Shown one piece after another: positions 13,263 through 63,539 of a stretch of 64,000 bases of DNA; within the stretch, counting starts at the first letter, position 1, and each line of letters begins with the position of its first letter. Position numbers and translations under genes: made by a program. Source of the DNA: Candidatus Kerfeldbacteria bacterium RIFCSPLOWO2_02_FULL_42_19 (GTDB taxonomy: Bacteria; Patescibacteriota; Patescibacteriia; HO2-48-17). Below the pieces are notes generated by a model. That model was not told where the DNA came from. It ran no database searches and was given only the letters and a program-made list of their open reading frames with translations. The stretch covers positions 17,148-81,147 of the forward strand of contig MHKF01000006.1 of assembly GCA_001818315.1 (NCBI GenBank). The letters run 5' to 3'.

Positions 13263-13304
13263 GATTTCAGAATTATTTAAAGCATCTGACTATATCATAC
13301 CAAA

Positions 13305-26666: not shown

Positions 26667-26699
26667 TCTCTTTGCAAATTTCTGTTATAATACTATTAT

Positions 26700-27086: not shown

Positions 27087-27090
27087 CATT

Positions 27091-33552: not shown

Positions 33553-33933
33553 GCCACCATCATAACGTGGATGCTCAAAGAACATAATCCTTTCTTCTGC
33601 TACGTAAGAAAGAATATCCTGTGCGAAAATCAGCGCAAGCATCGCGAGGCAGAGCACCTTATATGTCATCCACGCAAGGAAAAGATAGAAAAATAACATT
33701 GCAGTCAAGAGCAAAATCACAGTGCACCTTCCTTCCTTCCTGATTTATCTCAAACGTTTATGGAAAAGAACTTTGATATGAAAACAAATTACTGAATTTA
33801 TGTCAAGTTGACAGATATTCGAAAAAATTTTTTAACATCAACCTATCCATTAATCATACCCAATGCTTTAAAAAATTGCGACGGCTTTCAGAAAGTGCTA
33901 TAATAAATTTAAGTTTTCCACAAGTTTCATCTT

Positions 33934-35022
33934 TTGAACAAATCATCATTCCAAGGGGACAGAGTTCAAAACAATATGCAAAAACTCGACCTCAGTCATC
34001 CGCAGAATCCGTTGGAGCAACATGAGGATACTCCAACAGAAGCGGTAGCAAAAGAAACTATCAAACAAAAAGCAAGTCTTTGGGTTTTTATAGTCATTGC
34101 GCTTCTCACACTCATTTTGGGAAGTGCGAGTATTTATAAGCAGCTGACAGGTCCCTTTCAGCCGCAACTCAAGAATAGTAATCAATCAGCTGTCGTACTC
34201 GGAAAATCTGAACTTGAGAAATTACAAGAATTAAAAACGAAAGACACCGATAGTGATACATTGAATGATTACGATGAGCTCTATGTGTACGACACAAGTC
34301 CCTATTTAGCGGATTCGGATAGTGATAATGCAAGTGACGCGGAAGAACTGAAAGAAGGGCAGAATCCAAATTGTCCGCAAGGCACCATTTGTGATCAACC
34401 AAGAAAAAGCGATACACCCGCAACAAATTCAGGAGTAACCCCCCCCAGTGCACCTAGCAATACAATAACTCCCAGCATTCCAACGAACGCAGCTCCAGCG
34501 ACGAACACAGGCACAGCAAATCAAACTGCAGATACAGGACAGAATCAGCCAAGCATCACAGCCGACATCATTCGTCAAACGCTTAAAAATGCAGGCGCGC
34601 CGGCTGAATCAGTGGACGCGATGAGCGACGAAGCACTCCTTACGCTCTACGAAGAAACAGTCAAAGAAACGGGCTACAGTGGCACGACGACACCAGTCAA
34701 TAGCGCGAGCGACGATTTTGTTCCAGATGAAGTGGAAAACGCTTATAGCGACCTTCTTGTAGATACCGAAAGTCCCTACGGAGCGCTCGGTGAAGTATCA
34801 GCAGAAACACTGGAGCAATTGAAAAATCTTCCGCCAGAAGAGATTCGAAAACTTCTGATACAGCTTGGTGGCGAAGAAACGTTTATCCAGACGATCGATG
34901 ACGCGACGCTTCAGTTTATTTTTTTGCAAGCTATCGAAGAAATTATTCAATCGCAAAGCAAACCAAGCACAAGTGCAAACGCGAATACAAATTCAGGGTC
35001 AGTCAACACCAATCAAAAATAA
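33934..35022 (+). CDS. Membrane-anchored protein with TSP3-like acidic Ca-binding repeats and a T/P/N/A-rich low-complexity tail. It is the first gene of the large operon.
   Basis: It has a single TM helix (LWVFIVIALLTLILGSASIY). DTDSDTLNDYDE and DSDSDNASDAEE follow the DxDxD spacing of thrombospondin type-3 and calcium-binding repeats. The C-terminal half is low complexity (APSNTITPSIPTNAAPATNTGTANQT...). The start may be the internal Met at 33976. Confidence 0.5.
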   Translation: MNKSSFQGDRVQNNMQKLDLSHPQNPLEQHEDTPTEAVAKETIKQKASLWVFIVIALLTLILGSASIYKQLTGPFQPQLKNSNQSAVVLGKSELEKLQELKTKDTDSDTLNDYDELYVYDTSPYLADSDSDNASDAEELKEGQNPNCPQGTICDQPRKSDTPATNSGVTPPSAPSNTITPSIPTNAAPATNTGTANQTADTGQNQPSITADIIRQTLKNAGAPAESVDAMSDEALLTLYEETVKETGYSGTTTPVNSASDDFVPDEVENAYSDLLVDTESPYGALGEVSAETLEQLKNLPPEEIRKLLIQLGGEETFIQTIDDATLQFIFLQAIEEIIQSQSKPSTSANANTNSGSVNTNQK

Positions 35023-35027
35023 AAACC

Positions 35028-38000
35028 ATGCAAGTAAACGATGCAAGAAAAAACAAAAAATACACTCGCGCTCACTTAGGCTGGAAGAAGATGCTTTTCA
35101 TGTCGGTATTTACATTGGGAGTCTTGCTACAAAGTTTTATGATAGCAAGACCTGTCTTCGCCCAGGGTTTCATTGGTGACCCATTTTTTGATCCGCACGG
35201 GTTTACTCCTGCCGAAGAAATTAACTATACTGCTGTCGAACCACCGGGAGGAGGTCTTCCAGTAGCAGTGACAGTGGACACTCCTGGGTTCTTCCGAAGA
35301 ATCATGGATAAGATTGCGACGATAGCAAAAACAATATATGAAAAAGCTGGACGCGCCGCAGTGAAGGGCATGATCAGGGTAGTCTTGACGAAAGTTGCGT
35401 ATGAGACGGCTGTGTGGATCGCTTCGGGAGACAATAAGCAGAAACCGTTGCTTTTTACAAGTCAATGGGATGAATATCTGGAAGATGCTGGTGACGCAGC
35501 ATTAGGTGAGGCGTTCCAAACACTCGCCATGAAAAATGGATATCTACGATTCAATGTCTGTGATCCTTTTGATAATCGTGTGAACCTCGCGATTCAGTTG
35601 GGATTAGATTTTGCTACCGGTAGGCCGCAAAAACCGCAGTGTACTTTTAAAGAAATGCGCGAACGCTGGTCCGAAGTGAGAGATGATCCAGCAGCACAAA
35701 AGAAATTCCTTAGTAATTTCAAAGTCTCTTGGGACATTGAGCAAAATGACATCGGTCAATTTTTATCATTGCAAACAACGTTCCTTGCAACTCAGGCACA
35801 AAAAGAAAAATCAGCACAATTGCAAAGACAGGCATCCGATCCCTTTAAAGACGTGACTGGAAAAATTTCGCAGTTCATCGAAACGCCAGCACAAGTCGTT
35901 GCAGGAGTACAAAAGGACGCATTTGAAAAATCTTCCAATGAATTCTTGGTACTTGTAGGTGACCCAGCAGCGGATGCGCTTGGTGTTTTTACAAGCACAT
36001 TGATGTCAAAACTTTTAGCTCGCATCAAAGGTGGAGTGTATAGCTTTGGAGATCTTGTCAGAGAAGATTACCGTAATGAACAAGGCGGTTTCGTCGATGC
36101 AACTGCGTTTGCTCCTGCTGGAGGTGGATCGGGGCTCTTTAATCCATCGGGTGCTTCGGCTCCAGGAGTCGCCGCAGCCGAAGCGCATTACGCAAGTATT
36201 GCGGATATCAGCTTTTCAAGTGGCGACGAATTTCAGGTGCTCGCGGATCTCGTCGCGTGTCCATCCGAAGGCGCGCAAGCGATTAACTGTACGATCGACG
36301 AAAAATTTCGCATCGCGATTAACGACCGACTTACGGTGCGTGAAGCGCTCGATCAAAAACTTTTAGATGGTAAGAAACCGTTTGGGTTTGGAACGCAGGG
36401 ACAGCCGATTCCCAATGTGCGTGATGGATATTCATATCGCAGCGTCATTGTGCTCCAACGCTATCTCATCGTACCGGTTGGTTGGAAGATCGCCGCGGAA
36501 TACATCCGTGATTTTAATCCCGGAAATTTCACTTTAACTGATCTTGTATCAGCGTATGATAAATGCGGTCCAGATAATTACTCTCCTTTCTGCGGACTCG
36601 TTGATCCTGATTGGGTTCTGAAAGCGCCGGCAAACTATTGTCGTAAGCAAGGTTTCGGCAATCCAGTCGCAAAAGGTGAATACGTCGATCAGGATGGGAA
36701 TCCAGCAACACCGAGAAAGCCTTTTATCGTCCGGCAAGAAATCTGCGTGGACGACCAATCGTGTATTCAGGAAAATCCAGACGGCACATGTCGCGCGTAT
36801 GGATACTGCACGGAACAAAAGCGCATCTGGCGATTCGTTGGAGAACGCTGCGAGCCAGCCTATAACACTTGCCGCACGCTGACAGATACCGCAACAGGGC
36901 AACGCGCGTCCTTGCTTTTGAACACTGTAAACTTTAATGATTGTAGTCGTGATGTAGCCGGTTGTCAGTGGCTGTGTCAAGTATTTAATCCATTAGATAA
37001 CGACTGGCAGTGCGCTGGCAACGGGGTCGTCTATCCGACGTGCGACGCTGCACATGATCCGGATGGCGATGGCAACTGCGATGGAACCACAGGAGGGGCA
37101 ACATGCGCAACAAATCCGTGTGCAATAGAATCAGGCCGTTTTCGTTGTCAGAATACAGACGATGAGATATGTTACCTGAATCCAGAAAGCGATAATCCTC
37201 GGGAGTTTAACGACGCAAGTATCAGTTTAGACCGTGATGCGCCGAACTGTGACAGTAAAAATGCCGGCTGCGAAAAGTTTATCAGCACTCGTAATGGCAC
37301 GAATCTCATCAATAACCCGAGTTTCGAATACTTTGCCGATAATCCATTAGACCCACAGCCGTTGACATTCTCATCAGAAGGTGCGGGCGATGTTTTAAAT
37401 GACAACGACGCCGATGTGTTTGGATTTTGCGATGGTCGCGGTGGAGACACACACGCGTGCGATGATGATAGTGATTGCGCTGGTGAATGCGTCGGCTGGC
37501 AATCATTCGGAGCGCCCATTGTGCTCGGCGTTTCCGATCCTGTGGCGCGTGGACAAGTTGCAGTGAAATTTGTGGGTACTAATGATGCAGAAGCAGACAC
37601 ACTCATGTACGAATACGAAAGTAATACCGAACTTGCGAATCGTTCGTTTGACTTGAGTTTTCGTTACCGAAAAACAGGAGGAGGAGGAGCTTGTACAGTA
37701 AAATTGAAATATAACACCGATCAAGATTCAGATATTGCCACTAAAACTTTAGCAGTCAATGAAAGTTGGACAGAAGAAAAATGGAGCACAGATCAACTCA
37801 TAACACTTCCAAATACTCGGCAATGTTATGGTGGAAATGACGGGAGTCCTTGTACGAGAAACAGTGAGTGCGGCGGCGGGGTCTGCCGCAGCGATACTTC
37901 ACTGGAGATTCGTATTGGTGTCGAACCGGCAGGGTGCGAACTCTTGATCGACGAAGTAAAACTTGAAGAAATCAAACCTCTTAATTTCGAAAGTGCAACC

Positions 38001-41000
38001 GCCACAGCAGCATATTCGGAATATGCGAGTATCAACACAATACATCTCAATGGGCAGCGTTTGAGTTGCGAACCAAAAGATCTTGGTTGCGAGGCATATA
38101 CGGATGTCAAAGACAAAAGCGTTATTCCGGCAGTGATCACGAATCCAGTTTCAGAACTTTGTACCCAAGGGGTTAATAAAGATTACTCCAAAGCAAGTTG
38201 TAATCAGTGTGATCAAGGGCAAGTCGGGTGCGATTTCTATGAGGAAGTGCCGCTTAAGAATCAACCGCCAGATCCACTCGCGCCCGAAAGAACTGGTTTT
38301 TACTGTTCCAATTATCCAAATAGTGAAGCGCGAAGTTGCACCCCAGCATATTGCGACAATAATCCAAGTATTCTCTGTGATCCAACCGCTGATATTAATA
38401 CCCTTCGTGTCGTATGTGGACATAGTAATCCGACATGTGTGAACTCCGCGCCAGCGCAGTGCGGCGATCCAAGTGCAACATGTTTGCCACAAGTTTCGAT
38501 CATCCCGAAAACCGGTAAAAAATGTCGCGCTCAATACGTAGGCTGTGAAGAATACACGAATCTCGACATCGTAGGACAAGGCGGTGAAGGTTTGGAATAC
38601 TATAATCGTATCAAACAATGCGTTAAACCTGTTGATGGCGATCCGACGCAAGGCACGTACTACACTTGGGTCGGTTCAGAGACCGCTGGATATCAACTCA
38701 AAGCATTCAAACTCAAAAAGAGTAATATTACAGATCATAGCTTTTGCCCGGGTAATCAACAGATTTGTGATGTGAATGACATGATTAATGAAACAGGGAC
38801 AGCGCCTTGTACGCAACTTGATGTTGGTGATACTGCGAATCCAAACGCTGATTGCCAAGATACGATACAAGGTGATCCCGCAACATGTATAGAAGCAGAT
38901 CTTGAGACGAATCCAGACTGCGGACAATTCTACGATAGCGGTGGAAATATTTTCTACCGTTTGCGTTCGCGAGTGATTAGCGTTTCTGAAGAATGCAATC
39001 CCTTGCGCAGCACGATTGATAACAACGTTTACTACGCGATTCGATCACAGAGTAAAGTATGTCCCGCGCAAATGAACGGCTGCCGAGAATATAAAGGCAG
39101 CGCAGGGAACAACGTGCGCATACTCCTCCAAGAGAATTTCGAAAATACTACTTTTGAGGGAGCAGGGCTGAGCAATGAAGGCGCGATCGCCGGTTTCGGC
39201 GACCAGTCGATGGAGATTCGCATGGAAAATAACACAGATCCCAATGAAGGCTTTACTGATATACCGCAAACGCTCCTTACCAAAGGCAACGCCTACATCG
39301 TTTCGTTCTGGGCACGCAGCGGCACAAGTTCTGAAACAAATACACTCACAGTCAGCGCGATCTTCCGCAAGAAAGATGGCAGTGGCGTTCTCGAATTCGG
39401 CGAAACAACCCTCGAGCCGACGAATGACTGGAATTTGTACCGACTCGGTCCACTTGTTTTTGATCGCGAAGTTACCGATCAAGAAGTCTTTGCAATTCGC
39501 CTTAATCCACAAGACGCCAGTTACCCAAAGAGTCTTCAAATCGATAACCTCAAAATCACCGACAGCACGAGTCAATACCTGATTAAAGGCAGCGCGGCTA
39601 TTTGTCCAAAATTTGAAGGCTGTCGGGAATACTCAGATAGACAAGGCCGCACGAATTATCTCAAGTCGTTCACGCGGCTGTGTGAGCAGCGTTTCCTCGG
39701 CTGCGAAATTGCACTTGATACGCAGAATTCAAATCTCCCATTTGCTCAAAGTTTTAACTTAAACAACCCTGAAAAAGATCCGCAAGGTAAAGATGACGTT
39801 ATTGTTCCAGCGGATCAAGCGACACTTGTCGTAAATAATCCGAATAACTTTTGTTTTGCGACGGCTGAAGGTTGTAGCGCGCTCGGCTCCCCGAACGAAA
39901 ATAAGCAAGAAAACAAAATCGACGGATTTAGTACGACATATCGGATTAAAGATCCGGATAATTACGGTACGACATTGTGTCAGGATCATCAGATCATGTG
40001 TCGCGAATACCAATACGGAGAGACTCAATATTATTTCAAAGACCCCGGCAATAAGGCCTGTGAATATAGAATCGTGGGGCAGGATTTTAGTCCATCCGCA
40101 CCGAGTAACGATATATACGGCTGGGCAAAATTTGGTAAAGACGAAGGCTGTCCATTATTCAATCCATATGATTTTCCATCACGACCAAGCGGTTCCGTGT
40201 GTGCCGCGGGCGATCGTGTAGGTCAGCCGTGTCAACGAGACAGCGAATGTCCGGTAAGTTTCTGCACGAGCGATATTGCAGATGATCCAACAACACCAAA
40301 TACTGACGAAAGTCGCGGTTGGGTAGGTGCGTGTCCCGAAAGCGCTGATTCGTGCACATTGTATCTGGATACCTACGGCACGAATCCACGTGACGAAGAA
40401 ATTTTGAATTCAAGTTTCGAAACCGATGTACGTAATAACGCAACAGGAGAATACACTCCCGACAATATTCCTGATGATTGGCATCTCACCGCCTGCAGTG
40501 ACGGAACTTGCACGATCGCACGTGAAACCGGTCAGATTCGTAGCGGCGAAGCAAGTCTCAAAATCGAAGGAGGAGTAGGCAATCCAACCTTTACCATCGC
40601 AAGTGAACCCATGCGTGTGGATTCCAACGATATTTATACCCTGCGTGGCTATGTCCGGAAAAATTTCAATGGCATATTTGATCTTGGTCTCGCTTTCTTC
40701 GATCGTGATGGCAATCTCATAAGCGAAAATCCATTTATTGCTGCAAAACAAGAAGCGCTTACCGATCTGTCAGAAAAATGGGTTGCCTTTCAAGGAACGA
40801 TTGGTCCAACACAAAAAGGACCCGAACTCGCATTGGTGGAGTTCCCGCAAGATACTTTGGAAGTCAAGATTCTCATTGGTGGTACGACCGGTAGTGGCGG
40901 CATTTTTGTCGATGATGTTTCGTTCGATCACAACGACGAATATTATTATCTCGAAAACAGCGTCGACACCAAAAGCTGTCGAGGAAACGCAAATCGGGAT

Positions 41001-45779: not shown

Positions 45780-45791
45780 TCCGAAACATAT

Positions 45792-49670: not shown

Positions 49671-49675
49671 TCATC

Positions 49676-51304: not shown

Positions 51305-51334
51305 GAATAGGCGAAGAAATGGTATAATAAATGT

Positions 51335-51784
51335 ATGCAATTTGTGGTTCCGCAGTTTATTGAAGTCGAAAACAAAATTATCGGTCCGATTTCAACAAGA
51401 CAATTCATTCTCCTGGTAATTCTGGGAGTTATTGAATTTTTACTCTTTCGACTTGCGCCGGTATGGATGTTTATTATCGGTGGCGTCATTACGCTTGTAA
51501 TGTTTATCACCCTTGCTTTTGTGAAAGTGAACAGTCAGCCTTTTCATTTATTTCTCCTGGCAATTATCCAAACACTCAAAAAACCATCACAAAGAGTGTG
51601 GACCAAAGCAGGACACTATCAAGAAAAGAAAAAGAGCAAAGAGAAAGAGTCGCTTCCAAAAAGTATTCCAATCAAGCCACATTTTACACGCTCAAGACTT
51701 GCAGAACTTTCGCTGGTGGTCGATACCGGCGGCGCATATCGTGATACAGAAGTGTTCAATCTCAATCCATTCAAACATCAATAA
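51335..51784 (+). CDS. Small two-TM membrane protein, VirB3/PrgI/TcpE-like by position and topology
   Basis: The 149-aa protein begins MQFVVPQFIEVENKIIGPISTRQFILLVILGVIEFLL, with a second TM at WMFIIGGVITLVMFITLAFV. It lies immediately upstream of the VirB4 pieces, as in MPF-FA type systems. Confidence 0.4.
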   Translation: MQFVVPQFIEVENKIIGPISTRQFILLVILGVIEFLLFRLAPVWMFIIGGVITLVMFITLAFVKVNSQPFHLFLLAIIQTLKKPSQRVWTKAGHYQEKKKSKEKESLPKSIPIKPHFTRSRLAELSLVVDTGGAYRDTEVFNLNPFKHQ

Positions 51785-51789
51785 AAAAC

Positions 51790-52473
51790 ATGCATTCACA
51801 AAAGTTGGCACAAGGTCGCATCACAAAATCGGTGCAAAAATATATCGACATTTATGAAATTAAGGATGATGTCGTGGTATTGAAAGATGGTTCCATGCGA
51901 GGCGTACTGCTTGTTTCGAGTATCAATTTTGCTTTGAAATCAGAAGAAGAACAAAGCGCCATTATCCAATCTTACGTCCAATTCCTCAACTCCCTTAATT
52001 TTCCTTTGCAGATCGTTATACAATCCCGCAGGCTTAATATCGAAGCCTATCTCGAACGCCTCAAAAACATCGAAAGAGAACAAACAAACGAACTCCTGCG
52101 AATCCAAACAGCCGATTACCGAAAATTCGTCGGAGAACTCGTAGAAATTGCCGATATCATGAGTAAACATTTTTACGTAGCTATACCGTATTCCCCGTAT
52201 CATAAAGGAGAAAAAAAAGGTTTTTTTTCAAGATTCGGTGAAGTGTTTTCGCCAGCGACCGTAATTACGCTCCAGAGACAAAAATTTGAAAAATACAAAC
52301 AAGAGCTCGAAAGAAGAGTATCACTCGTAAGCGATGGATTGGCTTCTATGGGACTGACATCCGTCATGTTGGATACGCAAAGTCTTATTGAGTTGTATTA
52401 CAATACCTATAATCCCACTATGTACGAGCATCAGCGTTTAACGGATCTCAACGCGATCCAAGTAGTTGAATAA
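51790..52473 (+). CDS. VirB4/TrbE/CagE N-terminal domain as a separate 227-aa ORF (split VirB4)
   Basis: IDIYEIKDDVVVLKDGSMRGVLLVSSINFALKSEEEQSAIIQSYVQFLNSLNFPLQIVIQSRRL matches the CagE_TrbE_VirB N-terminal domain pattern. It stops with TAA 2 nt before the ATG of the ATPase ORF, in a different frame. Confidence 0.55.
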   Translation: MHSQKLAQGRITKSVQKYIDIYEIKDDVVVLKDGSMRGVLLVSSINFALKSEEEQSAIIQSYVQFLNSLNFPLQIVIQSRRLNIEAYLERLKNIEREQTNELLRIQTADYRKFVGELVEIADIMSKHFYVAIPYSPYHKGEKKGFFSRFGEVFSPATVITLQRQKFEKYKQELERRVSLVSDGLASMGLTSVMLDTQSLIELYYNTYNPTMYEHQRLTDLNAIQVVE

Positions 52474-52475
52474 AT

Positions 52476-54311
52476 ATGCCACAAGAGATTGTAAAAACAG
52501 TACAAACCACAATCGATAAAAAACAGGAAAAGCAAATTCTCGAAGCCGAACGCGTATTCCGGCGAGGAGAAATATCCGTGCGCGATCTCATTGCACCAGC
52601 AGCAATGAAAGTGAGTCCACGTGCTCTGGATATCGGTGGGAAACTCGCAAGCACACTCTTTGTGATCACGTATCCCCGATACATCGGCGTCGGCTGGTTT
52701 ACGCCCATCGTGATCTTGAATCTTCCTATCGACATCGCGATGTTTTTTTACCCTGTTGCTTCCGATATCGTACTCAAGCAGCTGCGCAATAAAGCAGGTG
52801 CCATCGAAGCTCAACTCCTTTCGGATGCAGAAAAAGGAGCGCCTCGTGATCCCATTCGCGAAACAGCGTTAAAGGACATCGAACAACTCCGCGATAATCT
52901 TGTGCAAGGTACCGAGCGATTTTTTCAATTTGCGCTCTATGTGACCGTATACGCTGATAACGAAAAGCAACTCGAAGAACGTGTTGAAAAAATAGAAAAT
53001 ATCTTCGGATCACGACTCGTGTATGTGAAGCGGGTGCTCTATCAAGCAGAACAAGGATTCAATTCAACAATGCCACTCGGCAATGACGAAATTGCCGTAT
53101 ATTTCAACATGAATTCTTCGCCATGCGCATCGTCATTTCCTTTTACTTCAGCTGAACTCACGAGCGATGAAGGGGTGCTCTTTGGAATCAATCGGCACAA
53201 CAATAGCCTCGTGCTTTTTGATCGTTTTTCACTGCAGAATGGCAATGCAGTCGTTTTTGCAACAGCAGGTGCTGGAAAAAGTTATGCGGTGAAACTTGAA
53301 GTTTTGCGAAGTTTGATGTATGGCACCGACATTATTATCATCGACCCAGAACGCGAATATAAATACCTCTCTGATTCTGTTGGCGGGACATTCATCAACA
53401 TTTCGTTGAATTCAGAAGCGAAAATTAATCCTTTCGATCTCCCGCGTCCAGTGGGCGGTGCCGATAGACCAGCGGACATTATTCGATCCTCCGTCATTAC
53501 ATTGAAAGGTTTGATTCGGATCATGGTAGGTAATTTGACGCCAGAAGAAGATTCGCTCGTTGATCGCGCACTCATTGAAACCTACGCGAAAAAAGATATT
53601 ACTGTTGAAAGCGACTTACATTCCATTGACGTACCGACAATGTTGGATTTCCAAGAAATACTTTCGGGTATGGAAGGGGGCGAAGGTTTGCTTTTGAAAA
53701 TAAAAAAGTACACTGAGGGAACGTTTGCCGGACTTTTTTCGAGTCAGACGAATATCGACATGAAAAATCAACTCGTTGTGTTTAGCGTGCGCGATCTTGA
53801 AGATGAGCTTCGGCCGATTGCGATCTATACGATTATGACCTATATTTGGAGTGTCGTACGTTCGCAACTCAAAAAACGAATTCTTGTGATCGATGAAGCG
53901 TGGTGGCTTATGCAGCACGAAGATTCCGCGAAATTTATTTACGCGTTGGTGAAACGATGTCGGAAATATTATCTGGGCGTCACGACGATTACACAGGATG
54001 TGAATGATTTTTTGCGTTCACCTTACGGTCAAGCGATTGTGACGAATTCAGCATTGCAACTCCTCTTAAAACAATCACCGGCATCAATTGATATTGTCGC
54101 AAAAACATTTTTGCTGACACAGGGTGAAAGGTATTTGTTGCTTGAAAGTGGGGTCGGTGAAGGTATTTTTTTCGCAGGCAGCAAACATGCGGCTATTAAA
54201 GTTGTTGCGTCGTATGCAGAAGATCAGATCATTACCTCAGACCCACGGCAGTTGCTCGAAATCGAAAAAGCGAAAAAAGAATTCGAAGAATCTATAGGAA
54301 ATAAACAGTAA
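52476..54311 (+). CDS. VirB4/TrbE-family T4SS ATPase (C-terminal ATPase portion)
   Basis: Walker A is VVFATAGAGKSYAV. Walker B is RILVIDEAWWLM. The downstream TTITQDVNDF motif region and the typical post-Walker A IIIDPEREY are present. Confidence 0.8.
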   Translation: MPQEIVKTVQTTIDKKQEKQILEAERVFRRGEISVRDLIAPAAMKVSPRALDIGGKLASTLFVITYPRYIGVGWFTPIVILNLPIDIAMFFYPVASDIVLKQLRNKAGAIEAQLLSDAEKGAPRDPIRETALKDIEQLRDNLVQGTERFFQFALYVTVYADNEKQLEERVEKIENIFGSRLVYVKRVLYQAEQGFNSTMPLGNDEIAVYFNMNSSPCASSFPFTSAELTSDEGVLFGINRHNNSLVLFDRFSLQNGNAVVFATAGAGKSYAVKLEVLRSLMYGTDIIIIDPEREYKYLSDSVGGTFINISLNSEAKINPFDLPRPVGGADRPADIIRSSVITLKGLIRIMVGNLTPEEDSLVDRALIETYAKKDITVESDLHSIDVPTMLDFQEILSGMEGGEGLLLKIKKYTEGTFAGLFSSQTNIDMKNQLVVFSVRDLEDELRPIAIYTIMTYIWSVVRSQLKKRILVIDEAWWLMQHEDSAKFIYALVKRCRKYYLGVTTITQDVNDFLRSPYGQAIVTNSALQLLLKQSPASIDIVAKTFLLTQGERYLLLESGVGEGIFFAGSKHAAIKVVASYAEDQIITSDPRQLLEIEKAKKEFEESIGNKQ

Positions 54312-54322
54312 TGAATTAAGGT

Positions 54323-54928
54323 ATGAATAAAAAATTTTTCATAATACTCATCGTTTTCGTGACTCTTCTGATTATCGGCGGAGGTATTCTCGTCTGGTTC
54401 TTATTGAAGTATCAAGAACTAAACTATGTAACGAATCAGCCGCAGAATGTAAATTCGAGGGCAGTAAATATTCCGGTAACAACAACAAATACGCAAACAG
54501 CGAATGCAAATGTAATTGAGCAAAATACGAATCAAGAGAAGAGTAACCTTGAGCAAAACACAGAAGACGAAATTACGGCGCTCAGTAGAAGTTTTATAGA
54601 ACGTTTCGGCACGTTCTCGAATCAGAATGAATACGAAAATATTAACAACCTTCGTATTTACATGACCAAGAAAATGCAAGCATATGCAGATACGCTTATC
54701 AAGAATGCAAAGGCAACAGATGAAAGCAGTCCTTATTATGGAATTACAACAAAAGTCGTAAGCGTTGAAATCAACGAACTTGCTCCCCCACAAGCGCAGG
54801 TAAAAATTACAACCCAGCGTAAGGAAACGAAAGAAAATAGCGAAACGAAAGTATTTTATCAAGATGTTGAGATGGGTGTTGTGCAGGAGAGAGAAGTTTG
54901 GAAGATTGATAGTGTCACATGGAAGTAA
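54323..54928 (+). CDS. Bitopic membrane protein with a C-terminal NTF2-like domain (VirB8/TcpC-like candidate)
   Basis: It has an N-terminal TM helix (FFIILIVFVTLLIIGGGILVWFLL) and an N/T/Q-rich linker. The C-terminal ~110 aa ends ...VFYQDVEMGVVQEREVWKIDSVTWK, a pattern typical of NTF2-like/VirB8 folds. Confidence 0.4.
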   Translation: MNKKFFIILIVFVTLLIIGGGILVWFLLKYQELNYVTNQPQNVNSRAVNIPVTTTNTQTANANVIEQNTNQEKSNLEQNTEDEITALSRSFIERFGTFSNQNEYENINNLRIYMTKKMQAYADTLIKNAKATDESSPYYGITTKVVSVEINELAPPQAQVKITTQRKETKENSETKVFYQDVEMGVVQEREVWKIDSVTWK

Positions 54929-54945
54929 GAGTATAGATAATTATT

Positions 54946-55680
54946 ATGTCAGCAGAAGCAGCTGAAAATCTTCAAAGTATGCCTGTGTTGCCAGCAGCTT
55001 ATCAGGCGCAGGCAGCGAGGCAACTTTCGCGGGAAAAACAAGGTAGACGTCTTTCCGCTGTACCAGCGCCATTAGGTTTGGATTATGGGGGGGCTGGAAT
55101 GCCTTCTGCGGAAAGTGATGCTGCGGAAGCGTCGAACGAAGCAAGTTCCGCAACATCGGCAGAAGGTGCACTAGATCAAAAACCAGTTATCCAAGGAGCG
55201 CAACTACAGCAGGCACTGAGGCGTTCATTGGGACAACGAACAAAACTTGCGCGCGAGGGTTCGGAAGGCGCAGAAGAAGAAAGTAAAAAAGGGGCGGTTT
55301 CAGATGCCACGGCTACCGGTGTGCGACTTTTGACTGATAACGCATTGACATGGTGCTTCCGATACTGCGCAACGTTTGAACCTTTTGGAATTGTTTTGGT
55401 TGTACTGCCGTATCTGAATTTTCATTTTTGCCAAGCGCACTTGCGTGGATCCCAATGGTTTCGAAAATTCAAGTTGTGGGAAATCGTTGTGTTTATACTT
55501 CTAGATCTTCTCGTTATTGGTATTATCGCAAGCATTTTTATGCTCGTGATACTCGTCGTTGAGTCAGCACAAAAAAAAGCAGAAATCACGTGGCGTCTTA
55601 TTATGGGTTTAGTCACCGGCGGTATATCAGGTCTTAGTGGGGCAGCAGGATCTATTCTCGGAGAAGAATTGACTCAATAA
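54946..55680 (+). CDS. Hypothetical membrane protein (acidic/Ser/Ala-rich N-terminus with a C-terminal multi-TM region)
   Basis: The C-terminal hydrophobic helices are FGIVLVVLPYLNFHF, WEIVVFILLDLLVIGIIASIFMLVILVV and LIMGLVTGGISGLSGAAGSIL. No family was recognised. Confidence 0.4.
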   Translation: MSAEAAENLQSMPVLPAAYQAQAARQLSREKQGRRLSAVPAPLGLDYGGAGMPSAESDAAEASNEASSATSAEGALDQKPVIQGAQLQQALRRSLGQRTKLAREGSEGAEEESKKGAVSDATATGVRLLTDNALTWCFRYCATFEPFGIVLVVLPYLNFHFCQAHLRGSQWFRKFKLWEIVVFILLDLLVIGIIASIFMLVILVVESAQKKAEITWRLIMGLVTGGISGLSGAAGSILGEELTQ

Positions 55681-55688
55681 TTAAATTT

Positions 55689-56930
55689 ATGCTCGGCGTT
55701 AAAATAGAAATATTCAAAAAAATCGGATTCGTTTTTATCTTCTTGTTGGTTGCAATAGGTATGGGGTTTGTTATTTATCGTATCTTTTTTGGCCCACTTG
55801 TTCGTGAACCTGCAACGAATGTGAATATTTCGCTTCCTCCCGGAACACTACCGCCGACAAACGTCAATATTAACGCAGGAGTGATTATTCGTAATATTAA
55901 CGGAGTGCAAGAAGTCGTACTCCCTGCAATCGATACGGTCGCACGTGGAGGAAATACACTTGCTGAAGATGTACCTGCTGAGGCCGTGAGTAATGCGGAA
56001 GTAACCGAACGCGGAATCGTATATTATAACGAATTCGAAGGAAAATTTTACACACTAGATAAAGATGGCAAACCGCAAACGCTCACAGACGATGTGTATC
56101 GATCGGCAGAAGAAATCACGTGGAGCCCTGAAGGTTCTAAAGCAATTTTAGAATTTCCGGATGGCAGCAATATTCTGTATGATTTTGATAGTAAAAAACA
56201 AACAACACTCCCAAAGGAGTTAAGCGATTTTTCTTTTGCTCCAAGCGGCGGCGAGATTGCATTTAAATTTCTCACCGATCGCAAAGAGCACCGATGGCTT
56301 GGTGTATCTTCTCCCGACGGTTCGCAAGCGCGCGGCATTGAACAACTTGGAGAAAATGCAGAGAAGGTGACAGTTGATTGGTCACCGTCTGGACAGGTGA
56401 TTGCGACGTTTCGGGAAAGCGTCAATGCGGAGGATAACGAAATTACGTTCGTGGGTCTTAATGACGAGAATTTTAAGGGCCTTGTTGTGCAAGGAAGAGG
56501 ATTTCAATCGCAATGGTCACCTGCAGGAGATAGATTATTATACAGTGTCTATAATGCCCAAGGGAATTATCAGCCAGAGTTGTGGATTACCGATGCGCAA
56601 GGAGAGAATATCGGTCGAAACAATGTTCCACTGAAGATCAATACCTGGGCGGACAAATGTACTTTTTCGGTAAATACCGCAATCTATTGCGCAGTGCCAC
56701 AGACGTTACCGTACGGAGCAGGGATTGTGCCGGACCTTGCTGCGAGCACGCCAGATATTTTTTATAAAATTGATCTTGCAACCGGTACAAAAACTGTTAT
56801 CGCATACCCCGTGGATAGTAGCGGAAATTCACGATTCTCTGCCGAGAAGCTCTATGTAGGCAACGATGGCAAAAACCTCTTTTTTACGGATAAGCAAACT
56901 AGAAAACTCCAGAAAATTAGATTAGAATGA
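55689..56930 (+). CDS. TolB-like beta-propeller protein (PD40/WD40-like repeats) with an N-terminal TM anchor
   Basis: It has an N-terminal TM helix. Repeated W-S-P-x-G blades are present (ITWSPEGSKAILEFPDGSNILYDFD, FAPSGGEIAFKF, VDWSPSGQVIATF, SQWSPAGDRLLYSV), as in TolB C-terminal propellers. Confidence 0.5.
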   Translation: MLGVKIEIFKKIGFVFIFLLVAIGMGFVIYRIFFGPLVREPATNVNISLPPGTLPPTNVNINAGVIIRNINGVQEVVLPAIDTVARGGNTLAEDVPAEAVSNAEVTERGIVYYNEFEGKFYTLDKDGKPQTLTDDVYRSAEEITWSPEGSKAILEFPDGSNILYDFDSKKQTTLPKELSDFSFAPSGGEIAFKFLTDRKEHRWLGVSSPDGSQARGIEQLGENAEKVTVDWSPSGQVIATFRESVNAEDNEITFVGLNDENFKGLVVQGRGFQSQWSPAGDRLLYSVYNAQGNYQPELWITDAQGENIGRNNVPLKINTWADKCTFSVNTAIYCAVPQTLPYGAGIVPDLAASTPDIFYKIDLATGTKTVIAYPVDSSGNSRFSAEKLYVGNDGKNLFFTDKQTRKLQKIRLE

Positions 56931-57665
56931 GTGTATATGAAAAATATTGGCCGTGAAACATTTTTTATCACTCTCAGCATCCTTGCCCTGATTTTTATTG
57001 TCGTGCTCTACGCCTTTGGACAATACCTCATGCAACAACCTGTCAAAACGCAAGCACAACAAACTTCTGATTTACAATATGATCCTTTAATTACGCTTGT
57101 ACCTGAGCAGTATCAAGTGCCGCCAGAAGGTAAATTTGAAATTTCAAATAATGATCCACAGCGTGGGGCCGAAGACGCGCCTGTGACGCTCGTGATTTTT
57201 TCGGATTTCCAGTGCCCGTACTGTTTGGACGCAGAAAATATTATCGCGCAGCTCGAGAAAGATTTTCCAGAAAAAATCCACATCGTCTGGAAAGACTTAC
57301 CGAATCCACGGCTGCATGCGGAAGCAAAGCCCGCAGCAGAAGCAGCGCGCTGCGCACAAAAGCAGGGAAAATTCTGGGAATTTCATGATGCCCTTTTCAA
57401 AAATACAGACAACCTCGCTACCGAACTCTACACAAAAATTGCAACAGACCTTCAGTTAAACTCCGAAGATTTTACAACGTGCGTCGAGTCGCATATGACA
57501 GAATCTCTCATACAAAAAAATTACATCGAAGGAAAATGGCTCGGTATCACCGCAACACCGTATTTTTTTATTAACGACGTGACGGTTTCCGGTGCGCGAG
57601 ACTATGAGTATTTTAAAGATGTCATAACGCAAGAACTCCAAAAGAAAGAGTCGACAATAGAATAA
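56931..57665 (+). CDS. DsbA-like thiol:disulfide oxidoreductase (thioredoxin fold, CPYC active site), membrane-anchored
   Basis: It has an N-terminal TM helix. APVTLVIFSDFQCPYCLDAENII is followed by ...KFWEFHDALF, which is typical of the DsbA family. The start abuts the previous stop with a 0-bp gap. Confidence 0.7.
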   Translation: MYMKNIGRETFFITLSILALIFIVVLYAFGQYLMQQPVKTQAQQTSDLQYDPLITLVPEQYQVPPEGKFEISNNDPQRGAEDAPVTLVIFSDFQCPYCLDAENIIAQLEKDFPEKIHIVWKDLPNPRLHAEAKPAAEAARCAQKQGKFWEFHDALFKNTDNLATELYTKIATDLQLNSEDFTTCVESHMTESLIQKNYIEGKWLGITATPYFFINDVTVSGARDYEYFKDVITQELQKKESTIE

Positions 57666-57669
57666 GTCT

Positions 57670-58563
57670 ATGCAACAACAGAGCAAAAAAAATATATGGA
57701 TTCAAAGATACTTAGGAAGGAGAGGCTATATTCCATTAGTTTTGGGCATACTTTTTGGAATGCTTTTTGCACTGCAGAACTTTGCACTCATTCCTGTTTT
57801 AGCACAAGGTCCGGATCAGCCCGCGAATACTGGTGCGCCAGATGCCGAAGCAGGGCCACTTCTCATTTCACTCGAAATTCCTATTGGTGGAAAAGCGACC
57901 GTAGGGAAACTCGATGAATATATTTCGGAACTCTATACATTTGCTCTCTCATTTATTGGTATTGTCGCGACGATCATGATTATGTGGGGCGGATTTAAGT
58001 GGGTAACAGCAGCAGGAAATTCAGGGAGAATTTCGGATGCTAAGGATACGATTTATAATGCAATTATTGGACTTGTGTTGGCGCTCCTTTCGTGGACTAT
58101 GTTGAATGTGATTAATCCCGCGTTAACATCAAATACGTTTCCAGAAGTGAGACCGATTAAACCAGCATATTCGAAGCTCGCGGACTATGTCGGAGCAAGT
58201 TGTGTGGCAGCTAATGCCGTTGACTCCATGAATATTTGTGAACATTTCAGTCTAGAGGCAACCCAAAACAAAAGTACAGATAGTTTAGTATGTAGTTTTG
58301 ACAGAAAAACTGGTGCTCAGGCATTCGATCATTGCACGATGAAACTATGTGCTGATACACTGGCGAATTGTGCTGGTACATACCCCGGTAACACTTATAA
58401 TTACAGGAAATGCCTTTGTTTATTGTATCAAAAAGATGAAAGTGACTGTAAAAAAGATAGTGAAACTTGCAAATTTCGGTGTAGTTGGCTGGAAGAACCG
58501 ATAACAAATTTAGAGCAAAGAGCAAATCCATGTTGGCCGGATGGGCTTACGCCAGTGATTTAG
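57670..58563 (+). CDS. VirB2/TrbC-like pilin-fold protein with a ~120-aa cysteine-rich C-terminal extension
   Basis: A signal-peptide-like TM (YIPLVLGILFGMLFALQNFALIPVLAQG) is followed by two hydrophobic helices (LYTFALSFIGIVATIMIMWGGFKWV and IYNAIIGLVLALLSWTMLNVI) separated by a short polar loop (TAAGNSGRISDAKDT), which is the VirB2/TrbC topology. The tail carries about 12 Cys (SCVAAN...ICEH...VCSF...HCTMKLCADTLANCAG...KCLCLLY...DCKKDSETCKFRCSW...PCW). Confidence 0.5.
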   Translation: MQQQSKKNIWIQRYLGRRGYIPLVLGILFGMLFALQNFALIPVLAQGPDQPANTGAPDAEAGPLLISLEIPIGGKATVGKLDEYISELYTFALSFIGIVATIMIMWGGFKWVTAAGNSGRISDAKDTIYNAIIGLVLALLSWTMLNVINPALTSNTFPEVRPIKPAYSKLADYVGASCVAANAVDSMNICEHFSLEATQNKSTDSLVCSFDRKTGAQAFDHCTMKLCADTLANCAGTYPGNTYNYRKCLCLLYQKDESDCKKDSETCKFRCSWLEEPITNLEQRANPCWPDGLTPVI

Positions 58564-58653
58564 TTATTTTGGTGTGTTTTGATTTCGGATGGCAATCATA
58601 ATGATACCGGAGAGAAATTCTTGAATAGAGAAGTTTGTTTTTAAATCAGTACA

Positions 58654-63495: not shown

Positions 63496-63539
63496 GGTGC
63501 CCCCGACAGGATTCGAACCTGCGACCTTCCCGACATCAG
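63496..63539 (-). other. tRNA 3'-half fragment (variable loop, T arm, acceptor 3' strand, discriminator, CCA)
   Basis: The minus-strand sequence is CTGATGTCGGGAAGGTC-GCAGG-TTCGAAT-CCTGT-CGGGGGC-A-CCA. No matching 5' strand (GCCCCCG) lies upstream, and the fragment abuts the intact tRNA. Confidence 0.45.

Follow-up and report, generated by a model that had tools for sequence, protein, structure and literature searches.

Type IV secretion systems (T4SS) of Patescibacteria have already been published (McLean 2020; Wang 2023; Quinonero-Coronel 2025). The core described between 2020 and 2025 consists of VirB4, TrsD, PrgI, VirB6, VirB8 and a VirB2-like pilin; a relaxase is absent from its neighbourhood. 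The homologous cluster of Southlakia epibionticum is essential for epibiotic growth; pilins are present, and relaxase and coupling protein are absent (PMC10633639). A phylum-wide survey regards these T4SS as non-conjugative, reports KsgA frequently near virB4 and finds that ABY1 T4SS loci adjoin radA/recG (PMC12102498).

Here, we analysed a 64-kb stretch of DNA (the window) from an ultra-small groundwater bacterium, Candidatus Kerfeldbacteria of the ABY1 class of Patescibacteria. Region 33934-58563 is a chromosomal type IV secretion gene cluster. As an earlier note on this DNA had stated, it contains twelve ORFs (O1 to O12, Table 1), all co-directional on the + strand with gaps of 0-30 bp (from O1 to O12: 5, 12, 5, 30, 5, 2, 11, 17, 8, 0 and 4 bp). 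It is flanked upstream by LeuRS, TsaC and KsgA and downstream by RadA, RecG, TrmB, Ldh and a class I aminoacyl-tRNA synthetase. The further claim that the system had not been described before has to be withdrawn: the core is the known Patescibacteria T4SS and is not new. The encoded proteins, VirB4 among them, are identical to those of GCA_001818335.1, an ABY1 Candidatus Kerfeldbacteria genome of 1.07 Mb in the supplement of the 2025 survey, whose entry carries a 'Yes' that we take as virB4-positive (PMC12102498). The locus is chromosomal and probably vertically inherited, in an arrangement typical of ABY1. We read it as a minimal monoderm-type translocon with a surface module that serves host contact and not conjugation, with a probability of roughly 0.7.

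Table 1. Positions of the cluster genes, neighbouring genes and sequence elements in the window.
Feature	Position	Strand	Evidence or remark
ksgA/rsmA, 16S rRNA dimethyltransferase	32719..33552	+	PF00398 E 1.1e-46; conserved upstream neighbour, outside the machine
Candidate promoter	33876..33904	+	TTGCGA, 17-nt spacer, TATAAT, TG extension; 10/12 match
O1, bitopic membrane protein with two bacterial thrombospondin-type-3 (TSP3, Ca-binding) repeats, Cys pair, helical repeats	33934..35022	+	
O2, secreted Cys-rich giant, 3,583 aa	35028..45779	+	signal peptide (...VFA|QG)
CBM_4_9 carbohydrate-binding module in O2, aa 1365-1468	39120..39431	+	PF02018 31.6 bits vs 25.9 cut-off, E 2.5e-7
O2-family signature motif CRxYP..C.Y....GWxGYCLE.D...CLxWWPVD.I.GE, about aa 2535-2600	42630..42830	+	family alignments
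O3, extended VirB6-like polytopic protein	45792..49670	+	TM prediction, family-level TrbL matches
O4, orphan, no TM segment, no signal peptide	49676..51304	+	always immediately 5' of PrgI
Candidate internal promoter	51301..51328	+	TTAAGA, 16-nt spacer, TATAAT, TG extension; 10/12 match
O5, PrgI/VirB3-like two-TM protein	51335..51784	+	PF12666 36.1 bits vs 27
O6, TrsD-like, VirB4 N-terminal domain as separate ORF	51790..52473	+	VirB4-model N-terminal matches
O7, VirB4 ATPase, monoderm (MPF-FATA-like) type	52476..54311	+	NF045971 CD1110 family 347.9 bits, cut-off 325
O8, VirB8-like bitopic protein: TM helix, linker, NTF2-like domain	54323..54928	+	AF2 + Foldseek
O9, lineage-specific orphan, low-complexity N-terminus, hydrophobic C-terminal hairpin	54946..55680	+	
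O10, membrane-anchored, probable beta-propeller (PD40/TolB-like repeats)	55689..56930	+	N-terminal TM
O11, membrane-anchored DsbA-type thiol-disulfide oxidoreductase	56931..57665	+	PF13462 (Thioredoxin_4) 93.5 bits, PF01323 (DSBA) 62.1 bits
O12, VirB2-like pilin module (signal peptide + two TM helices) fused to 145-aa C-terminal domain	57670..58563	+	
radA	58654..60135	+	Pfam AAA_25, Lon_C, zinc ribbon; conserved downstream neighbour
recG	60071..62107	-	Pfam RecG_wedge, DEAD, Helicase_C; convergent w/ radA, overlapping radA

The translocon would comprise seven genes: the extended VirB6, O4, PrgI/VirB3, TrsD and VirB4 as a split ATPase, the VirB8-like protein and the VirB2-like pilin. O7 carries ATAGAGKS as Walker A and ILVIDEAW as Walker B motif, matches VirB4 in PDB 4ag5 with E 9.8e-47, and has Mycoplasma ICE VirB4 (256 bits) as its second-best NCBIfam model. 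O6 matches N-terminal positions of VirB4 models (NF045975, E 7e-9; NF041427 TrsD, E 4.2e-6; CD1110, positions 3-86) and is on record with PF26593 TraC-like. Judged by these model matches, two ORFs, one TrsD-like and one for the ATPase, together encode VirB4. The earlier note had overlooked this split. The AF2 model of O8 (pLDDT 81.9) has CagV 6iqt (E 6.6e-6), R388 TrwG, PrgL 7aed, TcpC 3ub1 and TraH 5aiw as top Foldseek matches, and one family member carries PF04335 VirB8; the sequence profile alone found nothing in PDB. The fold search confirms O8 as VirB8-like at the level of the predicted structure. O12 matches PF18895 T4SS_pilin at aa 78-148 (46.7 bits vs 26.6), as do 17/17 orthologues, whose C-terminal domains are hypervariable; its own C-terminal domain, the extracellular tail, holds all 12 Cys (aa 178-288). 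The earlier naming of a VirB4 ATPase, a small VirB3/PrgI-like protein, a VirB2-like pilin and an NTF2/VirB8-like protein is borne out by these matches and those in Table 1, while the naming of a VirB6/TrbL-like protein holds for the family but not for the window copy. PF04610 TrbL/VirB6 is matched by 10/35 O3 orthologues (best E 3.5e-7), and the window copy alone gave no match in Pfam or PDB searches. O3 has about seven TM segments (aa 20-360), and a helical, Cys-free extension of ~860 aa forms its C-terminus. Its N-terminal 430 aa are conserved among 34 orthologues; no sequence conservation was found in the C-terminus.

A scan of 43 window ORFs (up to 34000 every ORF with 120 aa or more, then all twelve of the operon and the three large ones downstream of it) and of the 10 kb past the window revealed neither a relaxase nor VirD4 or VirB11. 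The absence of these genes from the operon, as first described, extends to its surroundings, and the search for an adjoining relaxase and VirD4 found housekeeping genes on the flanks. An apparatus with no relaxase or coupling protein nearby argues against conjugation. That the locus belongs to an ICE or an integrated plasmid, with relaxase, coupling protein and oriT beyond the window, is highly improbable. VirB4, TrsD, PrgI and the VirB8-like protein have homologues among the conjugation proteins of Gram-positive bacteria, and the window contains a tyrosine recombinase (11064-11987) and tRNA genes (9280-9457 and 63539-63613). However, housekeeping genes flank the locus and separate the recombinase from it (PNPase, Gmk, LeuRS, TsaC, KsgA, RadA, RecG), the chromosomal context is the same across many species, and the ORFs scanned over 34 kb upstream and 15 kb downstream include no relaxase or T4CP. 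GC content stays within 0.42-0.485 and shows no abrupt change. VirD4-like genes distant from virB4 are common in Patescibacteria, whereas the survey found relaxases in only 103 of their genomes (PMC12102498); a T4CP or relaxase may still lie elsewhere in the 1.07-Mb genome. The earlier idea that a small-genome episymbiont has repurposed a T4SS-like apparatus for a non-conjugative role fits all tests run and the published work (PMC10633639, PMC12102498, PMC12857230).

Upstream of the translocon genes lie two proteins of the proposed surface module. O2 contains 166 Cys (4.6% vs 0.57% in other window ORFs), densest in aa 500-3000, and is indeed the giant secreted Cys-rich protein recognised before. 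Homologues in 14 complete metagenome ORFs have 2,554-3,793 aa and 3.2-5.7% Cys; relatives form 417 clusters (50% identity) at E<=1e-3 and 350 at E<=1e-10, many of 2,000-3,900 aa. Of the multiple carbohydrate-binding-like modules proposed earlier, one is recognised by Pfam. Three more jelly-roll-like modules are suggested only by a common terminal-strand motif, h.hD[DEN]h[KS]h, at aa 972, 1503, 1959 and 2510, and similarity between the candidate modules compared pairwise is mostly non-significant. On the Pfam match and its composition, O2 is a candidate host-binding adhesin. O1 has a predicted TM segment at aa 43-71 and the invariant motif DTDxDGLSDYDE...SPYLxDSDSDG..D..E..G.DPNC..G..C. Its description as a Ca-binding-repeat protein stands for the family, with PF18884 TSP3_bac matched by 12/15 orthologues (best E 3.2e-11), but the window copy has no Pfam match. 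The start codon of O1 is uncertain (TTG 33934 or ATG 33976).

At the far end, O11 has the active site CPYC (CxxC at aa 95) and is a disulfide oxidoreductase, as had been proposed. In public annotation it begins 6 nt later, at ATG. For O10, the TolB-like label is at most a resemblance at the level of the fold: TIGR02800 gives E 4.5e-4 and 19 bits vs a cut-off of 343, and the family profile matches PDB TolB 7mx5 with E 0.004. O9 has no match in Pfam or NCBIfam, and no homologue was found among 64 same-position ORFs in relatives. The family HMM comes out against O9 as pilin-like.

VirB4 shares 70-75% identity with its counterparts in 80 other Patescibacteria genomes, and the order O4-PrgI-TrsD-VirB4-VirB8 is retained around it (O4 in 63/67 loci, PrgI in 72/72, TrsD in 78/78, VirB8 in 70/72). 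In a reciprocal synteny test, the O2-family signature motif used as bait returned 32 metagenome loci, 25 of which extend >1 kb beyond the giant ORF and are informative for the downstream order. In 23/25, a VirB6-like gene follows directly, then O4, PrgI, TrsD and VirB4; the TSP3 protein lies upstream, with KsgA directly before the TSP3-giant pair, in all 16 loci that extend that far. Among 40 related loci with at least 9 kb downstream, DsbA occurs in 20, the propeller in 15 and each of DsbA, propeller and pilin in 15-20. All three occur together in 7/40, so the full 12-gene set represents one lineage's version. The synteny tests support the giant and TSP3-repeat proteins as conserved members of the locus, with DsbA, propeller and pilin-like protein recurring downstream.

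It is unlikely, in our estimate, that the locus consists of two functionally uncoupled neighbours, a KsgA-linked adhesin pair (TSP3 and giant) and a separate T4SS operon. Two divergent loci, L117 and L118, keep the KsgA-TSP3-giant triad with no T4SS genes such as VirB6 or O4 in the next 5-7 kb, which indicates that the giant protein is not strictly T4SS-dependent, and 14/50 VirB4-anchored loci have other genes and no VirB6-like gene within 8-10 kb upstream. In addition, the promoter-like site directly ahead of PrgI, in the biggest internal gap (30 bp), means that O1-O4 and O5-O12 could be separate transcripts; statistically, this site is no different from chance. Against a division stand the gene order in 23/25 giant-anchored loci, the window gaps of 5-12 bp, and the far-end DsbA and Cys-rich pilin head, which suit the needs of a Cys-rich giant. 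From spacing (gaps <=30 bp), co-transcription of the twelve ORFs would be expected. The candidate promoter 30 nt ahead of the ORF1 TTG start, within the sole long upstream gap (381 bp), is only suggestive as promoter of the locus, because the overall count of such sites is not above shuffles. RadA starts 90 bp after O12, and no hairpin above chance was found in 58550-58660 (z 0.06); with this distance and no terminator, radA is possibly co-transcribed with the locus.

The Helicobacter ComB system is composed of VirB2/3/4/6/8-like proteins and is not known to include VirD4, VirB11 or a relaxase. By analogy, the composition of our locus appears to mirror ComB, and a ComB- or archaeal Ced-like T4SS could take up host DNA or nucleotides into the epibiont and deliver them to RadA/RecG and ComM. 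We regard this reading as doubtful. The conserved downstream neighbours radA (20/40 loci) and recG (24/40) would fit it, as would a pilin-RadA adjacency that persists when the block is inverted with respect to VirB4, and a ComM-like gene at 23296-24876. However, radA and recG serve housekeeping functions and may lie here through synteny alone, and the window ORFs scanned (120 aa or longer) include no ComEC or ComF. For ABY1, coordinated function with comF, recG and radA has been suggested (PMC12102498) and uptake from the host speculated (PMC12857230), but the only genetically tractable relative needs type IV pili and ComEC for competence, and its T4SS is essential independently of ComEC (PMC10633639, PMC12857230). 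VirB4 matches CedB weakly (E 4e-12), and with 45 bits vs a family cut-off of 700 it is not a Ced orthologue.

For the favoured host-contact translocon, we propose the following mechanism. The surface module around the core would consist of the Sec-exported giant with its carbohydrate-binding module(s) and the membrane-anchored TSP3 protein, propeller and DsbA; the pilin-like protein of the translocon would be a surface element. After export by Sec, the giant protein and the pilin-like protein's Cys-rich head would be oxidised by the DsbA that the locus encodes. Perhaps with the TSP3 protein as its anchor, the giant may then bind host-cell glycans, and the VirB4-powered channel and pilin-like element would move material between epibiont and host. 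The parts of this scheme that concern adhesion, the targets of DsbA, and what is transported and which way are inferences. In the searchable literature, we found no discussion of the giant protein, TSP3 anchor, DsbA or propeller as T4SS partners. The step past this literature is that the giant and TSP3 proteins are conserved T4SS-locus members, with DsbA, propeller and pilin recurring downstream. For these epibionts, the locus may provide an apparatus for secretion or uptake at host contact, equipped with its own adhesin and a module for oxidative folding.

The locus consists of twelve ORFs (O1 to O12), all on the + strand between 33934 and 58563. The ORF listing of the window bears out the co-directional arrangement with gaps of 0 to 30 bp described in the earlier note; in order, the junctions measure 5, 12, 5, 30, 5, 2, 11, 17, 8, 0 and 4 bp. 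Because the spacing is this tight, O1 to O12 are probably co-transcribed, and two units are possible since two promoter-like sites with an extended -10 are present (see the table). Promoter and terminator scans gave site numbers not above shuffled expectation, a search for a terminator between O12 and radA found none, and an Rfam scan of the window returned three tRNAs and nothing else. The 5' neighbours are leuS, tsaC and ksgA; on the 3' side radA follows at 90 bp and then a convergent recG, the 3' ends of the two genes overlapping by 65 nt. GC content across the window is 0.42-0.485 and a sharp boundary is absent. The 381-bp gap 5' of O1 holds a 69-codon ORF with a hydrophobic N-terminus, which overlaps the ksgA 3' end by 42 nt and may be a small membrane protein or spurious.

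Positions of the features discussed and their presence in the VirB4-anchored loci (denominators are the loci long enough to judge; positions refer to the window unless a homologous locus, L, is named)
Feature	Position	Strand	Presence
O1, TSP3-repeat protein	33934-35022	+	
O2, giant protein	35028-45779	+	
O3, VirB6-like	45792-49670	+	36/50
HEKAH motif in O3	48447-48461		
O4, orphan	49676-51304	+	63/67
O5, PrgI	51335-51784	+	72/72
O6, TrsD-like	51790-52473	+	78/78
O7, VirB4	52476-54311	+	
O8, VirB8-like	54323-54928	+	70/72
O9, orphan	54946-55680	+	
O10, propeller	55689-56930	+	15/40
O11, DsbA	56931-57665	+	20/40
O12, pilin	57670-58563	+	20/40
DsbA, pilin and propeller jointly			7/40
radA		+	20/40
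recG		-	24/40
radA/recG 3' overlap	60071-60135		
Promoter-like site	33876-33904		
Promoter-like site	51301-51328		
69-codon ORF	33511-33720	-	
LysM + Peptidase_M23 protein	27943-29388	-	
ComM-like ATPase	23296-24876	-	
XerC-like recombinase	11064-11987		
CCA-adding enzyme ORF	9331-10938		
tRNA-Arg and tRNA-His	9280-9457		
Histidine-kinase/response-regulator set	5977-7478		
Histidine-kinase/response-regulator set	12200-15026		
Histidine-kinase/response-regulator set	25002-27915		
Locus with giant, no T4SS genes following	L117:3512-20129		
O1 homologue and giant in one frame	L104:3368-11692		
O12 orthologue, variant head	L008:16325-17503		
O12 orthologue, variant head	L012:15336-17414		
O12 orthologue, variant head	L054:8927-10366		
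O12 orthologue, variant head	L030:16243-18366		

Within this operon the parts of a type IV secretion system (T4SS) core are recognizable. O7 scores 347.9 bits against NF045971, the NCBIfam model of CD1110-family VirB4 (cut-off 325), ahead of models for Mycoplasma ICE VirB4 (256 bits), F-type TraC and VirB4/CagE, and carries the Walker A and B motifs ATAGAGKS and ILVIDEAW. The only solved relative in a PDB sequence search is 4ag5/4ag6 (E 9.8e-47), deposited as 'type IV secretory pathway VirB4 components-like protein'. O7 is thus a VirB4 ATPase, in agreement with the earlier note, and of the monoderm type; the note had overlooked the TrsD-like ORF beside it. O6 covers the initial 100-200 positions of the VirB4 models (E 7e-9) and also matches the NCBIfam TrsD/TraD model (E 4.2e-6), both with scores below the curated cut-offs, and PF26593 is on record for it. 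VirB4 is therefore divided between two ORFs, one TrsD-like and one with the ATPase. The small VirB3/PrgI-like protein proposed from sequence is recovered as O5 (PF12666, 36.1 bits, cut-off 27), and the VirB2-like pilin as O12 (T4SS_pilin PF18895 at aa 78-148, 46.7 bits, cut-off 26.6; NF045849, E 8.7e-7). O12 is built from a signal peptide, the pilin domain and a 145-aa tail that holds all 12 of its cysteines.

For O8 (201 aa), previously described as an NTF2-like bitopic protein, the family sequence profile gave no significant match in the PDB. Its AlphaFold2 model (21 sequences, pLDDT 81.9) contains a TM helix joined by a disordered linker to an NTF2-like domain, and the top Foldseek hits are the VirB8 homologues CagV (E 6.6e-6), R388 TrwG, PrgL, TcpC, TraH and TraM, all with a probability of 1.00. 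One member of the O8 family carries Pfam VirB8. By this fold comparison O8 is a VirB8/NTF2-like T4SS subunit. The homologue searches for alignments yielded 7, 21 and 6 proteins, so that alignment depth was limited. The first 360 residues of O3 (1,292 aa) contain about seven TM segments. The VirB6/TrbL-like label given to O3 holds at the family level, where 10 of 35 orthologous N-terminal domains match PF04610 (best E 3.5e-7), but the window copy alone has no Pfam match and the family profile finds nothing significant in the PDB; we accept O3 as an 'extended VirB6' at family level only. The C-terminal ~860 residues lack Cys, abound in Ala, Glu and Lys, show no sequence conservation across species and, from their composition, are taken to be helical. 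Within this extension, at aa ~886-890, lies an HExxH motif, HEKAH. The polytopic core with a large hydrophilic C-terminal extension is shared with the extended VirB6 proteins of Rickettsiales, including the Anaplasma VirB6 paralogues, whereas the extensions have no detectable sequence similarity. For O4, the family profile against the PDB gave nothing significant.

An ordinary integrative conjugative element is a reading that a tRNA and a recombinase in the window could suggest. Pfam scans of 43 window ORFs (up to 34000 all those with 120 aa or more, then the operon's twelve and three large ones downstream of it) found no relaxase, VirD4/TcpA or VirB11, in line with what the earlier note said of the operon, and the 10 kb past the window end, with TrmB, a lactate/malate dehydrogenase, a class I aminoacyl-tRNA synthetase, a glyoxalase and a NUDIX protein, contains no relaxase or T4CP by Pfam. 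The XerC-like recombinase lies 22 kb from the locus, and the genes between include PNPase, Gmk and signal peptidase II. As these housekeeping genes separate the recombinase from the locus, the locus is not a mobile element. Its flanks are the same in many species. Of the features that define a conjugative T4SS or ICE, a MOB relaxase and VirD4/TcpA are thus absent from the ORFs scanned, and no integrase is adjacent; we reject this reading because housekeeping genes intervene and synteny is conserved. The locus lies in the chromosome and has no associated relaxase or coupling protein among the scanned ORFs of the 64-kb window and the adjoining 10 kb. Elsewhere in the window, three histidine-kinase/response-regulator sets, double-receiver proteins included, lie within 28 kb, notably many signalling genes for a ~1-Mb genome. 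The listed start of the CCA-adding enzyme ORF overlaps two tRNAs, so its true start must be downstream of 9457.

A relaxase-free T4SS core in Patescibacteria has been described before. McLean et al. 2020 described homologues of VirB4, VirB6 and VirB2, together with small Sec-dependent proteins, across Saccharibacteria and other CPR bacteria. Wang et al. 2023 (PMC10633639) found a T4SS cluster essential for epibiotic growth of Southlakia epibionticum, which resembles Gram-positive conjugative T4SSs and has pilins, without relaxase and coupling protein. Quinonero-Coronel et al. 2025 (PMC12102498) placed the Patescibacteria VirB4 in a clade related to MPF-FATA, with TrsD as its most frequent partner besides PrgI, VirB6 and VirB2-like pilins; VirB8 homologues occur almost only in ABY1, the class of this genome, relaxases in few genomes, KsgA is frequent nearby, and radA, recG and comF adjoin ABY1 loci. 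A 2025 review (PMC12857230) treats these systems as established newcomers and the 'extended VirB6' as a known concept. A protein identical to O7 is found on 20 public contigs, among them MHKG01000003.1 of GCA_001818335.1, and the O8 protein is attributed in one source to a Candidatus Kerfeldbacteria MAG. In the PMC12102498 supplement, the GCA_001818335.1 assembly is entered as an ABY1 Candidatus Kerfeldbacteria genome of 1.07 Mb and 973 CDS, in a row marked 'Yes', which we read as virB4-positive. The core of the locus is thus an already published Patescibacteria T4SS in a genome listed by a published survey. The proposal of a repurposed, non-conjugative T4SS was sound in its direction but overstated in its novelty, and the statement that the combination is not a described system fails for the core because this literature already covers it.

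With the Patescibacteria-clade systems (S. epibionticum SEML1_0006-0019, Nanosynbacter lyticus TM7x and those of the survey) the locus has in common VirB4 with adjacent TrsD, PrgI/VirB3, VirB6 and VirB2-like pilin(s), a chromosomal position and the absence of a relaxase or coupling protein nearby; with the ABY1 systems it further shares the radA and recG neighbours and a detectable VirB8-like protein. Saccharibacteria carry arrays of 4-6 small pilins and peptidase/lysozyme genes, whereas here one pilin module with a Cys-rich head is found. Among the MPF-FATA systems (pCF10 Prg, pIP501 Tra, pGO1 Trs, C. difficile CTn2 CD1110), CD1110 provides the best VirB4 model. The order PrgI, TrsD, VirB4 is the same, the VirB8-like fold of O8 resembles Gram-positive PrgL, TraH and TcpC, and neither they nor the locus have outer-membrane core components. 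In contrast to these mobile systems, the locus is chromosomal and conserved across species, its operon lacks relaxase, T4CP and VirB1-type hydrolase, and it contains a VirB2-like pilin, which is absent from Gram-positive systems (PMC12102498). A LysM and Peptidase_M23 protein is encoded 4.5 kb upstream of the operon; VirB1-like candidates with domains of this type have been noted in Patescibacteria (PMC12102498).

What this locus adds is an accessory module that is conserved, together with O4 and O9, both unassigned. The giant O2, its TSP3-repeat neighbour O1, DsbA, the propeller and the nearly universal ABY1 protein O4 are additional to the published Patescibacteria T4SS descriptions as far as we searched them. 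They receive no mention in the main text and the searched supplement parts of PMC12102498 or in full-text literature searches, and the terms Thioredoxin, DSBA, CBM and TolB do not occur in the searched supplement parts. In the synteny figure of that survey, genes without profile matches are drawn grey.

The accessory genes were followed in a VirB4-anchored scan with one genome per species. In the best 80 loci VirB4 is 70-75% identical. Where their record titles name a lineage, it is Falkowbacteria, Kerfeldbacteria, Jacksonbacteria, Uhrbacteria, Parcubacteria or 'Patescibacteria group'; some 26 titles read 'uncultured Gammaproteobacteria' and one Nanoarchaeota, and we regard these as mislabelled. 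Loci often have 2-3 pilin genes. In six loci (L026, L038, L042, L066, L074, L080) pilin, radA and recG are inverted together relative to VirB4, the pilin remaining directly upstream of radA. A reciprocal test, in which a metagenome collection was baited with the giant-protein motif GWxGYCLE.D...CLxWWPVD (alignment A9), gave 32 loci, each with a very large ORF; the 14 complete ones measure 2,554-3,793 aa and have a Cys content of 3.2-5.7%. Sequence extends for more than 1 kb beyond the giant in 25 loci, and in 23 of these the VirB6-like gene comes next, followed by O4, PrgI, TrsD and VirB4, and the order KsgA, TSP3 protein, giant is kept in 16/16 loci reaching upstream. This reciprocal, giant-anchored synteny makes the linkage of giant and T4SS core, as the earlier note had it, real and conserved rather than a chance adjacency. 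The exceptions are L117 and L118, which keep KsgA, TSP3 and giant and have no T4SS genes (VirB6, O4) in the next 5-7 kb. They speak for the alternative that the adhesin pair and the T4SS are merely syntenic neighbours, an explanation that we regard as doubtful. Both loci are divergent, and only small genes on both strands follow the giant.

The giant protein O2 conforms to the Cys-rich secreted protein described earlier: it has 3,583 aa, a signal peptide and 166 cysteines (4.6%, vs 0.57% in the other window ORFs). The multiple carbohydrate-binding modules claimed for it are only partly supported. One Pfam CBM_4_9 match is found at aa 1365-1468, but three further jelly-roll-like modules are hinted at only by a common terminal-strand motif, and pairwise similarity tests of the four putative modules were mostly non-significant. 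A phmmer search of O2 against the PDB found nothing. An exhaustive HMMER search with its C-terminal 1,150 residues gave 417 clusters (50% identity) at E<=1e-3 and 350 at E<=1e-10, many of them 2,000-3,900 aa long. In L087 and L091-L094 (upstream 10 kb) the giant region is broken into frames of about 1,400-1,760 aa, and matches to the window's giant nonetheless span about 12 kb; the breaks could be frameshifts, assembly errors or genuinely split genes. Its neighbour O1 is bitopic with the invariant motif DTDxDGLSDYDE...DSDSDG. Its description as a Ca-binding-repeat protein is supported by 12 of 15 orthologues matching the bacterial TSP3 repeat (best E 3.2e-11), and not by the window copy, which has no Pfam match. 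In L104 the O1 homologue and the giant form a single open frame of 2,775 aa, and in the near-identical L103 they are separate ORFs; the single frame may reflect a true fusion, which would support a physical partnership, or else a difference in sequencing. Omnitrophota giants also combine a surface protein with CBM-like domains and an adjacent secretion/pilus system in ultra-small predatory/episymbiotic bacteria. Unlike O2, they have type II/Tad-like loci as neighbours, reach far greater sizes and are not reported to be Cys-rich.

The disulfide oxidoreductase is readily recovered in O11 (Thioredoxin_4 PF13462 93.5 bits, DSBA PF01323 62.1 bits, CPYC at aa 95-98, N-terminal TM anchor), which we predict to be a membrane-anchored, extracytoplasmic DsbA-type enzyme. 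The membrane-anchored O10 had been called TolB-like. It is not a TolB of the Tol-Pal system, as TIGR02800 gives 19.3 bits against a cut-off of 343 and the window has no Tol-Pal genes. What stands is a weak resemblance, at most at fold level, to a TolB-type propeller (family profile vs PDB, E 0.004 over about 120 residues). For O9, no homologue emerged from phmmer and jackhmmer runs against 64 positional analogues in relatives or from the pilin family HMM. The C-terminal domains attached to the VirB2-like pilin module are swappable among related ABY1 loci. Among 17 O12 orthologues we observe SLT lytic transglycosylase heads in 3 (best E 2.7e-20), Peptidase_M23 in 1 and further Ig-like (Big_7, Big_13) and beta-helix heads, next to the 12-Cys head of the window's O12. 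As the heads include hydrolase domains, a pilin fusion may supply the 'missing' VirB1-type hydrolase.

A similar pairing of a secretion machine and disulfide-bonded proteins is known from the Bordetella pertussis Ptl system, a T4SS without VirD4 coupling protein that exports a Sec-delivered, disulfide-bonded toxin. Pertussis toxin depends on Dsb. Sec signal peptides and a need for disulfide formation would likewise mark the partner or putative cargo proteins of the locus. Unlike the locus, Ptl belongs to a diderm and includes VirB7, VirB9 and VirB10. The Ptl analogy has been drawn for TM7x by McLean et al. We propose, as the most likely mechanism, that O2 and the pilin head of O12 would be exported by Sec and oxidized by the locus-encoded DsbA, that O2, perhaps held by O1, would bind host surface glycans, and that a VirB3/6/8 channel powered by VirB4/TrsD, with the pilin-like element, would carry material through the envelope where the cells make contact. 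The proposal builds on the part identities, the linkage, the lack of DNA-processing genes nearby and the cross-species chromosomal context that we observe.

The conserved RadA and RecG neighbours make a machine for DNA or nucleotide import, of the ComB or Ced kind and coupled to these two proteins, an attractive alternative. Helicobacter pylori ComB and Sulfolobales Ced likewise have a VirB4-family ATPase, no relaxase or VirD4 and a functional tie to recombination; ComB also has VirB2/3/6/8-like partners, as the locus does, and differs in its outer-membrane parts. Orthology to ComB or Ced is not supported: the CedB model reaches 45.5 bits (cut-off 700) and the CedD model 19.6 bits (cut-off 600), and the window ORFs scanned contain neither ComEC nor ComF. 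This failed Ced test weakens the import reading, as does the ComEC-independent essentiality of the T4SS in Saccharibacteria (PMC12857230), and we consider it unlikely; ComEC-dependent competence is separate from the T4SS in Patescibacteria (PMC12857230). Ten kb upstream of the locus lies a ComM-like Mg-chelatase-family ATPase (PF01078, E 8.9e-88), which with RadA and RecG makes three recombination/transformation-associated helicase-type genes near the locus. More speculative still, and in our view quite improbable, is a combination in which O2, its TSP3 partner and the variable-headed pilins form the host-recognition front end of a reversed T4SS without coupling protein, a contact-dependent DNA/nucleotide import feeding RadA/RecG (and ComM), with O4 as a new cytoplasmic gating or energizing subunit.

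Returning to the contact-site reading, Patescibacteria represent a large share of bacterial diversity and apparently live on other cells, and theirs is the first T4SS with a demonstrated essential role for its carrier bacterium (Wang 2023, PMC10633639). To this, the T4SS core of the locus adds nothing new, while its conserved neighbours are candidates for the missing ABY1 parts; they are leads and not a new kind of system. Candidate parts are O4, present in 63/67 related ABY1 loci, and the pilin modules with swappable heads (Cys-rich, lytic transglycosylase, M23 peptidase, Ig). The locus-encoded DsbA is a candidate for oxidative folding, and O2 with its Ca-repeat partner, a disulfide-rich, carbohydrate-binding surface protein, is a candidate host receptor-binding element.
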